From contig NC_134027.1 of the NCBI RefSeq assembly GCF_964204645.1, forward strand, positions 24,390,560 to 24,454,559: a stretch of 64,000 nt of DNA, read 5' to 3'. Positions within the stretch are counted from its first letter, which is position 1. Each line of letters starts with the position of its first letter. This DNA comes from Tubulanus polymorphus (lineage: Eukaryota; Animalia; Nemertea). The notes under the pieces are model-generated. The model was not told the DNA's origin. It worked only from the letters and a program-made list of their open reading frames with translations, and did not search any database. Below, one piece after another: positions 6,926-14,608 of this stretch. Made by a program: the position numbers and the translations under genes.

Positions 6926-9005
6926 GGTAAGATCCTCCGGCAATTAGACCCTTCGAGAAATATGAAACCGCCGATCGAATAAGGCCTAGGCCTAATTGAG
7001 AAAAATTCCCGATTAAAAACCGGCTAAAATTCTTTGAGATGTCAAAACAGTGTCGTCGCGCTCTCGGAATCTATCGTAGCTGTTTGCTAGAAAAACCTAC
7101 TGCGCAATACGATCAATCGGCGCATAAACAAACACAGCGAATCGACGAATCACCGGATTCTAGAACGAACGCGATCAATAATAACCGATACGTTAAAATA
7201 CAATTAAGTCCCTCGGTGACGTATTTGATAAATTTTTTCCAGCGCTGCAGCTGTGACTGGAAACATATGCCGCGCGCTTTGGTGTAGGCTGTATGGAATA
7301 GTCGGAAACAACCACCTGACTGTCGAAGATAAACCAGGGGCGGATCGACGATGAGTTACGCGCGTTTTATGCAAATCTCATGTTTTGATGTATCACAACT
7401 GCGTATTTTATGCAAATCCCTTGTTTTTATATCATCACTAGGGCCTGAGTACTAAAGTAGGCCTACGGGCCTGGGAGAAAAGCAATTTATAACAAAAGCA
7501 ATTCATCATTTAAGGCCTAATTCGAAAAAGCGATAATTATCTAGCCTAACAGATGGGCAGATCCGATGGTAAATTTTATCTTTAGCTAAGGTTGTATTTT
7601 TAAGTGAATTTCGATGTCCTTTATCGGATAAAAAACTGAACACTTCGACACAAAACAGAAATTTGGTCAAAGCATCGCAGATTTTGATTATTAGGTTGAA
7701 AGAATTGGGACTGCAGGTCGAGTGACTAACTGAACATAAGTCCAAAACAGGACTTCAGTTTAACTAATTTACTGGACTTAGTCAGTAACAGACAATGCAA
7801 ATAATAGTCAGTCAGACTGGACTTCGGTTTGGTTCAACAATCAAATGTTTTTTTAATAAGCAATCCATTTATTTTAAGAAAAACCTGCATTGCCAAATGA
7901 TTTGTAAATTTTCACGAATACCCATCACAAAATATAGAATAAAAATCTTGAAATTAACAGATCAGAAGATTCTGTACATATTAGTAAAAATAACAAAATT
8001 GCTATGATTTGAAATGCAATAAAAAGACTAGAGTTATATTATATAAATAAAATGTAGTCTTATATCAAGTAACGTCATTAAAAGATTAGATAACTAAATG
8101 TCAACAAACGCACGTGCTTCATTAATGAAAACGTAAACAAACATGTGCGAGAAAAACTGCACGCGTAAAAAAAATACTGTATTCTTTAAACTCGAAATCT
8201 CGATTACCTCGACTCGGACGGCGGGCGATTACGGTTTAGACGTAATCGGTGGAGTGAACTGATAATTCGAACGTTGGTCGGACTTAATTCGATGCTTCTG
8301 GTTCGGTAGAAAATAAGGTTTTTAGACGATAAAAATGCTGGTTTTTCGTCAATGGAAGAAATGCGTCGTGAGATTTATGGAGTTGGTGATTGGTCGATTC
8401 GAGGGCTTGGCTCTCGTGACGTCATTCGTCACACGTTTCAGCTCGGAACGAAACGTCGAAACATTGTCTTATAAACCTAACGAGATGTTTTTGGTTTTTA
8501 TGTTTTTTTTCTCATATTTTCCAAACCATCTCTATATTTTAGAGTTCAAGTTCATATAAACTCCCCACAAAACAGGATTTGTCAAATAAACTGCAATATT
8601 CGAATTTTTGTTCGTTCCAATGATACGTTTATGTTTTTTATAGTTGGTAATAAGTGCAAGGAAGCAGAGGCTGGGACGGCAATGTTTACAGTTCGAACCC
8701 CGCAAAAAAAGGGTGGAGAAAAATTTCATTGAGTATTTTTGTAACCAAGAATTTACTAAATAAAAACGAAGTAGTCAAATTAATCATTGACATCTCTGTG
8801 CCATTGAAATGAAAACTATCGGACCATTTCGATGAATATAGAATTTGAGTTTGAATTGCACTTGCAGGTTTTCGAGCATATGAATTAATGCTAGCCAGTT
8901 AGTTACACTTCCGGGTTCATTTGCCGTTCAACGCGACAGAACTCTCCTAGTTGTTGAACTTTGATTAAACTGGTACTGAATTGCAGCCCCCTCCTCGTCA
9001 CAAAA

Positions 9006-12000
9006 ATGTCTCAAGCCGACCTGAAACAGTTTACTCTTGAAGAAGTGAAGAAACACAACGACAGCCGCTCGTGTTGGATCGTTATCCACGATATCGTTTA
9101 CGACGTCACCAAGTTTTTGGAAGAGGTAGGAGGACTCGACTTATGTCTATTTCAACCTGACTTGAGAGCATATCAGGTGGTCTAGCTCGGTAATTTTTGG
9201 TAGAACATACCTGATAAAAGTCTTATTGGGACCAGAATGCACTGGCAGCTGACCTAAAACATCGTTTTTTAATCCACTTTAAACTGTATTGAAGGATATC
9301 CAAAGAGTCTTTATTGAAAGGGGTTCACGAGAGAAAAGAGACTCCATGATTTGAAAGTTCAACAATGTCTCCATGCCTACCAACTGAAGTTTGGTATGTA
9401 GGCATGGAAACATATTGTTAAACTTGCAAATCATGGAGTCTCTTTTCTCTCATGAACCCCTTCAGTGAAGATTTTTTGGATATCCTTCACTATAAAGTTT
9501 CAAATGGATTAAAAAATGATGATTTAGGTCGACTGCCTGTCCTTTCTGGTCCTATTAAGACCTTTATCAGGTATGTACTACCAAAACTGACTGAGCTAGG
9601 CCACCTGGTATGCTCTCAAGTCAGGTTGAAATAGACATTAGGTCAACTGCTTTCTTATGAAATAAATCGAAATTGACATCAGAATTCACCTCACAATTGT
9701 TAGCAAGCAGAAATAATTAGGTATCGTCGGTACAGCGGTTAGGTATAGCGGTTGAAATGCAGGGCCTGTTGCAATGAACAGAACATTAAAGACAAAAAGC
9801 TGTCAAACGCAGGTCCTCCTTTTTTGAAGCCCGAAGCCGATAGCCTAACTATGTAGTCAATTTAGCAACAGACCTGTTTTTCTGGGATATTTCGCTTACT
9901 TTTTGGGGTACCCAATAGACCCAAGGATGTCCACTTTTTGATGGATACATGTCATCTGTGTAATTACTTAATCAAGCATCTCTCATTTACAAGGCAAATT
10001 TTGCTGTTTAGTCGTCACTCGATCACAATTTATGAATATTCTTCAGACCGAGTTCATCACAGATGCGTCCAAACAAGAAAGTTACGCAGTCGGTCTATCA
10101 TCGGCGCAATGTCTTTCAAAATTAATCATAGCATGAAGCCAGCAAGGCATTGGGGTGGCTTAGAGAATATCCAAATTACTATTCAAAGCCATCCTGTCAA
10201 AGTTTCTGTTATGGGTTTCAGGCAGACTTAGTTTTGGCATCGGCTTTTTAGAATGAGATTGTGCAATGTTGGAAATTTATGTCTGGCTGTGAAGAATGTT
10301 GGAATTTTTTTTTCGAAATAAAATTAAGCGCCTAATTGGCTAGTGTTGATTCATAATGATCATAGATTTGTGTGAAATAATTTTGACCTTTGTCAGTCGC
10401 GTGTAGCGCTATAGATAAACCCAGCTTTATAACGATAGGCGTTAAAGTACGCATTACCATCGAAATCAAGGTATTACACCTCGCTTCAGTATATTACAAA
10501 ATACATTAGCTAACTGGCTCTTGAATTTTATCAGTCCGAAAACGATATCCATAAGGCTGGGGGAATTAATTGATAAATTAATTCTGTTTTCATGTAGCAC
10601 TTTGTCCTGAAGATTATAAACTATTAGAATATATATTTTTCATGGAGTCGACTTCGCCGGAGTCGGATCTTTTAAGACTTTTTAATGAAGATGAAGAACT
10701 TAAGAAATTGCTCTAGAAAACATCAGTAATAACTGATATAATAATAACTAATAAGTCACACCTGACGATGATCTCTCTAGGGTGAGATCGAAACGTCGTG
10801 TATTCCATATATTTAAGATTGTTCGAATAAATAAATTCTTGTTTTTAAATTCTTTAAATCTGTAGATAGTGGGTTTTTATCTTATTATCCGTTCACCACG
10901 TTTGAGTATGGTTATCGTTCTAAAACATCAGTAGTTGCTCAAAAGTTGGTAAGAGTTAACCAACCGGTAGATAACCAGTGCAGCCAGTGGATATAGTTAA
11001 CATATTGAAAACCTAACTGTTATAACAGCATGTATCCGCCGGTTATGCTTAACCAACTTTTGTGCGACTGGCCCCAGAAGCCTAGACTTAAAATATAGGA
11101 CCTAATACATTGGATTCGTGATTAAACGATGGTTCACTGTTGTATCCACTATTAAATCATTTAAATTGCCCTATTCGGAATGGAATTCTAGGATTTGTAA
11201 TAACCGATAAATTGTTAGAGTTTGTTATAACGAGGTTCCGTTGTATCATTAGGGATTTGTCGTGAGTGTTGGGTGTTAGGAGTGATAAAAATGGATAGGT
11301 TCTACCAAGAGCCTTGATTCGTGCATAGGTCCTAGGGTATGATGAATATGATGGCTATGCGTTTAACACGGCAGATTGAAGCGTTGCTATGTCACATGTG
11401 TTTATGCAAATCCTAATTCAGACAAAATGTAGAATGATTCAAAATGTCACTGTTGTTTAGAAGATTTAAGGCATTCAATCTGTCGCACACTGATTAAAAT
11501 AAGTAAAATATAGAAATGATGAATGGCCAGATTTCACAAATATACAAGTAGTGAGAGTTTGCCTATTTTAGATGAGCTCATTATCATTTCAACATGTAAG
11601 CGCTATTCAATTAGGCCTAGGATCTGATCAGGGTTAGGATTAGGGTGTCAGGGACCATGTGGTTAGTGCACTGCACTGTCATTCGATCTTTTTTGATAGA
11701 ATATGCACAAATTGAATAATTCACTTCTTTTAAAAAGCGAGGCCCGATTGTCTAGATCAGTTACCCTTGGTTAGGGGTAAATCCCCAACCTGAGTGACAA
11801 CCACCAAATACCGTAGTTAAAAATACATCATTTTTCATGTGAAACCCTGATAAGTGACAAATTTCAAACTGTATCCAGCAGGGATTATTTGTCCCCACAT
11901 CACTCTATGGAATGCTAGGGATGGATCTAGGGTCTGATTCAGGAAGGGTTTACCCTCAAAATAGGATATATATGGTTAAAAGGGCATCCGATCATTGGAA

Positions 12001-14243
12001 AACATAAGACCATATTTTTTGAAGTACATGTTTGACAGGTTGATATTTTTCATTTTCCCTTAAAATTTCTGAGCAATATGATGTATTAGGGCGGGCGATG
12101 TAACCTGTCTGTGGTTTAGTTTCACGATCGGATATTTTCACAAACCACATTAGAATAAGCCCACCCGATTATAAAAAGCTTACCACCAACGATTTGGTAA
12201 CTAACTGCCCGAACGTACCCCTTGAAATTCATTGTTTTCGTGTCTATTTTCAGCATCCCGGTGGTGAGGAGGTTCTACTAGAACAAGCTGGTAAGTTATC
12301 TTCCAAAATAACGCGAATCGACGATAGATTTTTCGTATTTTGTAGATGAATTAATTTTCTTTGTCGATTATTTTTCCCATTCCAGGTTCATTCGGTACGG
12401 AGCCGTTTGAAGATGTCGGACATTCGACCGACGCAAGAGAATTGATGAAAGACTTCGTCATCGGTGAAATTGTCGATGTAAGTCTCGAGATGGTCCGTCT
12501 CAGGGGGGGTCAGTGTTGTAGAATTGATCACATTCATAGGGCGAATCTAGGAAAATTAGAATGCTGTGGCCAAGACATAAAGTAAAGGCATTTTTAACGA
12601 TCAAGCAGCCTGTCATAGGCTACTAGCGGGTTCCAACCTTGGTGTTAGATATTTTTGGAGAAATACATCTGAAAATATGCAATTTCTGTAAGGATGAGTG
12701 TGAAATTTGCAGATTTTAACAACTTCTTTATGTTATCGTTTTTTAGGCTGATAAAGAGGCCCCTTTGAAATCGGTAAGTATTTTTTCCGACCATTTAATT
12801 CAAAACCGTATAATTTTCTGATTAAATTTCGTTGAAAAATTCAGATAATTAATGATTGTTTCATGTATGATGATTTCAGAGTTCCACAACTCATCCGTCA
12901 TCTTCAACATCTGAGAGGTAAGTGGAATTTTTTTGAATTTTAAAAAATTCCGTTGGCAGTCCTTTTGCGAGGCTGTTCCCCAGGATAACAACCCCAGTCC
13001 CTCTAGGGATCATTCATTTATTACGTACGCTTAAAATTTGAATTTTTCATATACATCAACCCTTTCAGTGCATCTACACCGCAGTGCGGTGTATGAATCA
13101 GTGATAGATTTTGCTAGTACACCGCAATGCGGTGTATTGATGTAATTAGTAATTACCTCTCTTGAAAAATGGCAGCACCTGTCAAATATTAGTAACTAAC
13201 GATACACCGTGCCGCGGTGTAGACGCACTGTAGTGGTATTCCCGTTATTCAACACACTAGGATGGAACTTTTAAAATTTTTCAAATTATCTCCAGCACTA
13301 TAGGGTATTAATTAGTCAGCACTGAAAGGGTTAAGCATTACAGCACGCAATTGCACTGACCCCTCCCGCATACGTAATAAATGGACGACCCCCTACTACT
13401 TGATTTACCAGTTCGCTGGTCTATAAAACCAGTCCACCTGAGCGTCGTATTTCTACTCTAAATATTTTCACAGTTCGTGTAGCCTGAGTTAAGGGAAAGA
13501 CGGACCGTACGAGTCTCGCCACGCCATTAGCTTTGAATCCCCGCGAGGTAGGAACGTGGTGGCCAAGTCAGTGTGACTACATTCACACCTCTTCAATCGT
13601 AAACGAATCAAATTTCACTTTTTGGTTCCTGGGCTTCCGTGAGACCCTTCTTCTCGTTCTAGACCTATTTCTGTGTCTGTCTTTCAGTTATTTAGCTTCA
13701 TTAATAGTTGGTAGATCTTGCTGAAACTCGGGTACAGTGTTGATACAGGGGTCTAGTTATCAATGATATGATAAGATAAGATATAACTTTATTCTCCTGG
13801 CTAAAATTAATAGCATAGGGAGGTCAAAAAAGATGATACATAGAAAAACACAATACAGGAAAGACATGAAATAATATAGATTGATCACTTCAATTTTCAG
13901 TTAAAAATGCAGTTATCTAAGTCAATGAACAGAATGGGCCCAGTGCGCCACCTAGCGGCAGAACTAGGCATTAAAAACTGTTTTCAGCGATATGACCTTG
14001 AATAGGACCTCGCCGCCGAGGAACGGGGTTGAAATTCGAAAAGTTGTCTTGACGAAATTTAGCTACTAGCCCTAGAAGATACAACGTATCCAAAATGCAA
14101 AATTGTTTTTTTACCTTTAAGTTTAATCATGGTATTCTCCTTTTGCGATTTTCAGTTCGTGGGCTTCATGGTTGATTCCGATCACGATAGCGATCGCGGC
14201 CGCCCTCGTCTACCGACTGGTGGTCAGCTCGAACTCCAGCTAA
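9006..14243 (+). CDS. CYB5: Cytochrome b5, membrane tail-anchored isoform (~133 aa)
   Basis: Exons 9006-9125 ([18 protein letters not shown]...YDVTKFLEE), 12254-12290 ([13 protein letters not shown]), 12386-12477 ([14 protein letters not shown]), 12747-12773, 12880-12917, 14156-14243 ([28 protein letters not shown]). Both heme-ligand histidine motifs (HPGG, GHS) and a hydrophobic C-terminal anchor are present. Confidence 0.95.
9144..9637. mobile_element. Foldback/MITE-like element, near-complete ~490-bp palindrome, TTA flanks
   Basis: Termini tgtctatttcaacctgacttgagagcat / atgctctcaagtcaggttgaaatagaca. The complementarity runs to the centre, and TTA lies on both sides. Confidence 0.85.
10729..10921 (+). 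mobile_element. Short hammerhead-bearing retro-insertion (Penelope-like pLTR fragment)
   Basis: Flanked by the direct repeat aaaacatcagta (10717-10728 and 10922-10933). It contains a hammerhead plus AATAAA. Confidence 0.6.
10758..10801 (+). ncRNA. Minimal type I hammerhead ribozyme (Penelope/retrozyme-like)
   Basis: acac-CTGACGA-t-GATCTC tctagggt GAGATC-GAAAC-GTC-gtgt: intact core, stem I acac/gtgt, stem II gatctc/gagatc, minimal palindromic stem III, followed by aataaataaa. Confidence 0.75.
13060..13330. mobile_element. piggyBac-like MITE nested in another MITE
   Basis: TIR ccctttcagtgc/gcactgaaaggg with T(C/T)AA flanks. The empty host site atacattaagcattac is seen at ~16312. Family members lie at 25449-25732 and 26655-26943. 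Confidence 0.8.
13474..13492 (+). CDS. CYB5: Candidate alternative terminal exon of cytochrome b5 (ends ...SSCSLS*, no TM helix)
   Basis: Good acceptor (tattttcacag|TTCGTG) in the same phase 2, with the same first six exonic bases as the TM exon acceptor (ttttcag|TTCGTG). It gives a 110-aa protein ending C-S-L-S. Confidence 0.55.
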
Positions 14244-14436
14244 CGACAACACAAACCAGCCGCAGCTCGCTAATAATAAATAATATAGTAAAATACCTGC
14301 CAATTTTTGTTACCCCCGGTCGGGTGTGATTGAAATATAAATTCGGGCACAAATCGTGATACGACCTGAAGTTATGATTAGTAAATATGTAAACAGGGTT
14401 CCTTCAACGTTCAGGGAATATAAATTTCTGGTACCC

Positions 14437-14608
14437 GGGGCCGGTTGCGCAGTCATGGCTTGGACTTAGGACCAGTCTAAGACCAACTTAGATCTATAGC
14501 CAATCTAACAACTAAAGACCAGTCTCAAGATTTAAGACCACTTTTGGACTTAAGTCACGACTGTGCAACTTGGTCTTTAGTCTAATACATGACTATGCAA
14601 CTGGCCCC
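14437..14608. mobile_element. MITE family with ggggccggtt TIRs and ttaagaccagtc internal repeats; also ~25800-25939, ~26513-26645, ~28410-28549
   Basis: Dispersed copies with inverted ends ggggccggttgc/gcaactggcccc and shared internal sequence. Confidence 0.75.

Follow-up and report, generated by a model that had tools for sequence, protein, structure and literature searches.

Cytochrome b5 is a textbook tail-anchored protein, and its C-terminal helix is a standard tool for targeting proteins to the ER. The soluble (erythrocyte) b5 of vertebrates is made via a small alternative exon that contains a stop codon. Splicing also controls prenylation in KRAS4A/4B, CDC42 and lamin A/C, and Ykt6 is a lipid-anchored member of the tail-anchored SNAREs. 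Splice-controlled prenylation is likewise described for OAS1 p46 (PMC13372824) and the short isoform of Rab28 (PMC1847700). Here we analyse a cytochrome b5 gene contained in a 64,000-nucleotide stretch of the Tubulanus polymorphus genome (contig NC_134027.1, positions 24,390,560–24,454,559; hereafter the window). Our main reading, to which we assign a probability of roughly three in four, is that this gene makes a tail-anchored form of 133 residues and likely also a form of 110 residues that ends in CSLS and is predicted to be farnesylated, the same switch being present among database proteins of six phyla.

The gene, its tail-anchored product and a second acceptor

The gene lies on the + strand of the window and comprises six exons. 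Exon 1 (8921–9125), with 5′ UTR covered from 8921 and the ATG at 9006, ends in the donor GAG/GTAGGA; it is defined by translation and by a spliced contig of sequencing run X2, in which 8921–9123 is joined to 12254. The following four exons are defined by GT..AG joints in the same run and by translation. Exon 2 (12254–12290) carries the HPGG motif with the first heme histidine, exon 3 (12386–12477) the GHS motif with the second, exon 4 (12747–12773) a linker, and exon 5 (12880–12917) a Ser/Thr-rich linker with a phase-2 donor common to both forms. The phase of this last junction follows from the lengths of the first five coding exons (9006–9125 in exon 1), which sum to 314 nt. The joint 12917>14156, present in run X2, leads to the distal exon, whose coding part (14156–14243, + strand) encodes the tail-anchor helix and a stop that ends at 14243. 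The 3′ UTR covers 14244–14556, which is the extent of the spliced contig; another run X2 contig spans 14663–15144, and AATAAA hexamers lie downstream of the distal stop at 14275, 14757, 14985 and 15199.

The 133-residue product is RefSeq XP_074646344.1 of T. polymorphus (P0001 in our protein set), which carries no isoform label and forms a cluster of one member. It scores 92.9 bits against PF00173 (Pfam cut-off 23.7), and its residues 2–129 align to PDB 2m33 with an E value of 8.6e-43, both axial heme histidines (HPGG and GHS) included; its top PDB matches are of the CYB5A type. The protein has a single C-terminal hydrophobic helix with a hydropathy of 2.19 over 17 residues. The gene is a cytochrome b5 (PF00173) of the tail-anchored type, and tblastn identifies it as the one b5 gene in the window.

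A second acceptor lies within intron 5, at 13474. Both acceptors read CAG/TTCGTG and follow exon 5 in phase 2; an earlier sequence-only reading of this DNA had reported the shared ag/TTCGTG and the phase. The coding part of the proximal exon (13474–13492, + strand), which is single-copy in the window, completes a Ser codon and adds S-C-S-L-S and a stop ending at 13492. Its use would yield a predicted helix-less protein of 110 residues ending in SSCSLS. The CSLS-ending exon is a real feature of the locus, and the coordinates and translations of the earlier reading, including the usual tail-anchor helix from the distal acceptor, are confirmed.

Intron 5 also harbours nested inverted-repeat, MITE-like elements (13006–13392, unstranded), which stop some 80 nt short of the proximal acceptor and lie outside the exon. 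Their inverted arms pair 13006–13030 with 13368–13392 and 13058–13071 with 13319–13332, with internal palindromes, and summed depth over the region is very high in each of the four sequencing runs that cover it. Further high-depth repeats lie near 9200–9700, 10750–10900, 12100–12200 and 14480–14570, the last one within the 3′ UTR. The segment 13381–14155, which contains the proximal exon, is single-copy within the window.

CaaX-ended cytochrome b5 proteins in other animals

In Lineus longissimus, isoforms X1 (133 residues, with the helix) and X2 (109 residues) have 104 residues in common and then continue into the helix and into SCVIS, respectively. Isoform X4 of Asterias amurensis ends in SCSLS, the same five residues as the Tubulanus tail. 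Across homologues, a Cys at position −4 was found in 11/15 helix-less and 0/109 helix-bearing proteins (124 of the 125 listed proteins could be scored), a tally that comes from two homologue searches only, the second with a query that itself carries a CaaX motif, and with 120 of 3249 matches listed. A profile search is left out of this tally because its profile derives from CaaX forms, which biases it. In a non-independent set of helix-less proteins, the Cys occupies −4 in 28/44, and −1, −2, −3 and −5 in 1, 0, 6 and 5, respectively.

With cluster members and the CaaX-built profile search included, CaaX-ended b5 proteins come from at least 16 named genera in 6 phyla. We take these to be Cnidaria (Clytia, Exaiptasia, Pocillopora, Stylophora), Nemertea (Lineus), Bryozoa (Watersipora), Arthropoda (Centruroides, Oppiella, Planococcus, Operophtera), Echinodermata (Acanthaster, Asterias, Patiria, Amphiura, Lytechinus) and Chordata (Ciona). 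Both heme histidines are invariant across 16 CaaX forms. Most of the relatives' isoforms are predicted RefSeq models; four CaaX forms (P0026, P0076, P0077 and P0215) derive from contigs of 900–990 nt, which we infer to be transcripts. Same-species pairs of long and short forms numbered 17, all hand-picked, with one isoform chosen among several for Asterias and Patiria. The short form has its Cys at −4 in 16/17 of them; the two forms split 39–46 residues past the second heme histidine, just before the helix, in 15/17, and the Cys stands two residues after the split in 8/17.

The distribution is uneven. A CaaX form is present in 8/10 clusters chosen for their isoform labels and in 2/10 of another set of clusters, and among the matches listed, a small part of the 3249, none was found in the mollusc, tick, aphid and eel clusters or in vertebrates. 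A profile search of 50% representatives returned mostly multi-domain proteins, with Cys at −4 in 5/136 new proteins. Exceptions to the common pattern are the crinoid Anneissia, which ends in CCQVLS with Cys at −5 and −6, the mite Oppiella, which branches earlier and adds lysines, and the Ciona pair, which differs by earlier substitutions. For Drosophila dappled, RT-PCR is reported to have given a single transcript (PMC3092937). Taken as a whole, the protein comparisons strongly indicate that the helix/CaaX isoform switch is conserved far beyond close relatives. The sequence-only reading had proposed a search of related species for a conserved terminal Cys or CaaX, and such ends are found there and in more distant animals, the Lineus SCVIS and Asterias SCSLS tails included.

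Several further b5 proteins were observed in these searches. P0299, P0357 and P0270 contain 2, 2 and 4 b5 domains, lack a tail helix and end in KKKKKKCVLM, CIIQ and CCIVL, each with Cys at −4; CaaX-anchored b5 proteins may also have genes of their own, possibly in organisms other than animals. The insect two-domain proteins P0208 and P0211 (from Diabrotica and Pectinophora) have a common Cys tail, SC-SI-TCG--, with Cys at −5, and may represent a different, possibly lipidated b5 paralogue. The mite-type CaaX forms P0076 and P0189 branch earlier and have 6–7 basic residues ahead of the Cys, which resembles a plasma-membrane signal; they reflect either an exon shift or a second origin. Sea-star short isoforms (P0079, P0129, P0134, P0137 and P0143) carry an extra segment of 13–14 residues, and ahead of the CaaX they have another Cys, a possible palmitoylation switch; one-residue variants also occur. 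Many hemipteran and thrips b5 models (P0013–P0018, P0155) are about 170–178 residues long with half of the heme domain duplicated, either a real feature or a product of faulty annotation of duplicated exons.

Prenyltransferases read the a2 residue of the motif, and by the CaaX rule an X of L or F leads to geranylgeranylation. CSLS fits the CaaX pattern, with Cys fourth from the end, an aliphatic a2 and a permissive X. Its a1 is Ser, which is tolerated according to a study in which yeast FTase accepts a majority of CXXX sequences (10.1101/2023.02.06.527295). Motifs were scored with the 8000-motif table of PMC9231725, whose predictions are for yeast enzymes. In this table CSLS is positive with 4/4 prenylation and 2/2 cleavage predictors, so the prenylation signal proposed in the sequence-only reading is backed by all four prenylation methods. 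In the accompanying code archive, CSLS is positive in 13/13 prenylation models and 5/13 cleavage models. All 18 distinct motifs of the helix-less b5 proteins are SVM-positive for prenylation and cleavage and PrePS-positive for prenylation, against a base rate in the same table of 15% of the 8000 motifs predicted to be cleaved; FlexPepBind rejects 6/18. The screen-derived positive set of that source contains CTLS, CSLQ, CALS and CVLQ, with CSLS and CVIS absent. The motifs CVLL, CCIL and CTIF suggest geranylgeranylation in some lineages.

These data bear on whether the short form could simply be a soluble b5, with its Cys serving for a disulfide or acylation or staying unmodified. It is established for b5 that removal of the helix alone gives a soluble carrier, and our literature search found no experimental prenylation of any b5; the Cys is nevertheless pinned at −4 in most of the non-independent helix-less set, and a2 is V, I or L in 18/18 motifs, which is what prenyltransferases read. 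A plain soluble protein is therefore very unlikely.

The proximal site might also be a cryptic acceptor that arose by chance and has no function, or a remnant of a recent duplication of the last exon, given the CAG/TTCGTG common to both acceptors. The sequence-only reading had taken the identical exon starts as a hint of exon duplication, and this did not hold up: only the first 6 exonic bases are identical, and a local alignment score as high as that of the two exon regions, 23, is reached by 48/293 random pairs. The shared TTCGTG encodes Ser-Ser-Trp in the distal and Ser-Ser-Cys in the proximal exon, and the two tails begin with different residues in most of the relatives' pairs. As for chance, Cys at −4 results from 1/75 AGs within intron 5 and, window-wide on both strands, from 137/6941, a strict CaaX from 16/6941. 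Among acceptor-like AGs of the window (both strands), 13/633 give Cys at −4 and 1/633, site 13474 itself, gives a strict CaaX, a comparison that is a rough control only because the acceptor filters were set with site 13474 known. Conservation largely refutes both variants of this explanation, which we regard as highly improbable. An exon duplication origin is thus unsupported, while an ancient duplication may still underlie the two exons; in Tubulanus and in three pairs from anthozoans the Cys occupies the position of the Trp, which hints only weakly at a shared exon origin.

Probable extent and use of the proximal exon in Tubulanus

The sequence-only reading attributed the switch between tail anchor and CaaX signal to alternative last exons. 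The splice switch is upheld by the conservation and by the predictions for CSLS; the last-exon part gives way to a cassette, which fits better. A candidate 5′ splice site, GTAGGA (13548–13553, + strand), which the earlier reading did not note, is the sole AG/GT[AG] site inside intron 5. The donor GAG/GTAGGA at 13547/13548 looks strong and matches, base for base, the exon 1 donor that RNA supports; the 128 kb of both strands contain this 9-mer 3 times. The 74 nt from 13474 to 13547 are 55% GC, and at least 55% is reached in 0/436 intron windows of the b5 gene. Since the donor matches that of exon 1 and is the only such site in intron 5, and since the composition is exon-like, the proximal exon is probably a stop-containing cassette of 74 nt (likely full extent 13474–13547, + strand) rather than an alternative last exon. 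When it is included, the helix exon would become 3′ UTR.

Alternatively, a true last exon, polyadenylated at a site of its own near 13970, could give rise to the same CaaX protein. The remainder of intron 5 contains a single common poly(A) hexamer, ATTAAA at 13970–13975 (+ strand), and only this model requires it. The CSLS stop sits 55 nt upstream of the candidate donor, a borderline distance under the mammalian nonsense-mediated decay rule, and a last exon would escape such decay entirely. Yet an exon 1-identical donor lies 74 nt into the exon, where even a donor of the looser class AG/GT[AG][AG]G has a chance expectation of about 3% within 100 nt, and GC content, 55% before it, drops to 43% and further to 36% beyond it. 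We consider a true last exon unlikely, if still to be reckoned with.

Four runs of one study cover the region, none of them recorded as RNA, and they were searched as assembled contigs, which are simplified and drop rare variants. Run X2 behaves as RNA, with GT..AG joints, and runs X1, X3 and X4 show no such joints. An 830-nt contig of run X2 bridges all five introns via GT..AG, including 12917>14156. Among the joints listed for run X2, the sole spliced run, there is neither 12917>13474 nor 13547>14156, and at 99% likeness none of the 4 joints listed for intron 5 touches 13474 or 13547. The 12917>13474 junction proposed in the sequence-only reading thus finds no support in the contigs of the one spliced run, which contain the distal form only, and we infer the use of 13474 in Tubulanus; as contigs drop rare variants, they neither show nor exclude inclusion of the proximal exon. 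An unspliced 631-nt contig of run X2 (13336–13966) has a depth of 10.6 against 2.5–7.1 in four other low-depth pieces listed. It is taken as no evidence because levels cannot be read from contigs and this one ends amid repeats.

An exon conserved elsewhere could be silent in Tubulanus, as a relic or as a poison exon that sends its transcript to decay, and no CaaX protein would then be made here. This would agree with the spliced run that shows only the distal form, with the lack of annotation of the exon in Tubulanus, with the 55-nt distance between stop and donor, and with the repeats inserted just upstream of the proximal acceptor. The acceptor is also weak, ranking 20 of 75 where the distal site ranks 1, by a crude matrix from the gene's four upstream acceptors. 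However, the exon retains its frame, Cys offset, aliphatic a2, X residue and stop, all in agreement with the tails of Lineus and Asterias; a poison exon has no need of a CaaX in 16 genera, and contigs would drop a rare variant. We see a silent exon as a slim prospect, and retain the reading that the gene likely also makes a CSLS form.

A proposed switch of membrane anchor and its known relatives

The following mechanism is proposed. In some tissue or stage, exon 5 would be spliced to 13474, with the exon closing at 13547. FTase would then farnesylate the Cys, the last three residues would be cleaved and the new end methylated. The Tubulanus tail is free of a lysine run (polybasic patch) and of a second Cys, and weak, reversible binding is proposed for this reason: held by a single lipid, the short form would shuttle between several membranes and the cytosol, and the tail-anchored form would remain ER-bound. 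The short form could thereby carry electrons from b5 reductase to acceptors out of reach of the ER form, which we would place, as a best guess, in the cytosol or elsewhere outside the ER. Where a Cys or a lysine run is added, as in corals, sea stars, mealybug and mites, binding might be more stable, possibly at the plasma membrane. By analogy, helix and lipid anchors would not be equivalent in practice, since Rheb, which needs weak farnesyl binding in human cells, becomes fixed to the ER and loses its function when its CaaX is swapped for the b5 helix (10.1101/513473).

If the reading is correct, a central electron carrier would have a third class of location from cnidarians to tunicates, lipid-tethered beside ER-fixed and soluble, and one gene would provide a natural case of switching between a helix and a lipid anchor. 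In invertebrates, redox reactions that take place away from the ER would gain a candidate electron donor in the short form, and the isoform is already in databases for Ciona, sea urchin, sea star and Clytia. We would give even odds to a wider conjecture, in which the cnidarian–bilaterian ancestor already had both b5 modes. Most invertebrates would have kept a lipid-anchored b5 for non-ER membranes, tuned per lineage by an extra Cys, lysine runs and farnesyl versus geranylgeranyl, and in vertebrates it would have disappeared or given way to the soluble form without a lipid.

Splice-controlled prenylation and the soluble vertebrate b5 are known already; the CaaX-ended b5 splice form appears to be new. 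A search of the open literature, with subscription journals (older invertebrate b5 work) outside its scope, found no description of a CaaX-ended or prenylated cytochrome b5, and the word 'cytochrome' has 0 occurrences in the main text of the PRENbase paper.

Microsomal cytochrome b5 (CYB5A type; PF00173; PDB 2m33) shares with the Tubulanus protein the heme domain, both His ligands, the linker and the C-terminal helix; a CaaX-ended form of it was found neither among the vertebrate proteins examined nor in the literature search. The soluble vertebrate form resembles the short Tubulanus form in that an extra stop exon removes the tail anchor. It differs in having no lipid signal and in the position of its exon one junction further upstream, whereas the Tubulanus exon comes after the linker exon and supplies a CaaX. 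OAS1 p46, Rab28, KRAS4A/4B, CDC42 and lamin A/C resemble the present proposal in that the C-terminus particular to an isoform determines whether the protein is prenylated and binds membranes; to our knowledge, none of them switches between a helix and a CaaX or is a redox carrier. Ykt6 offers the likeness of a CaaX that replaces a tail anchor and leads to cytosol–membrane cycling, but it is a separate gene and not a splice form. The direct counterparts of the Tubulanus CSLS form, with the same branch point and a CaaX end, are the 'cytochrome b5-like isoform X2' type of RefSeq models of Lineus, Watersipora, Asterias, Acanthaster, Patiria, Amphiura, Lytechinus, Ciona, Centruroides, Planococcus, Exaiptasia, Pocillopora, Stylophora and Clytia, which are automatic models whose displayed names make no mention of prenylation.
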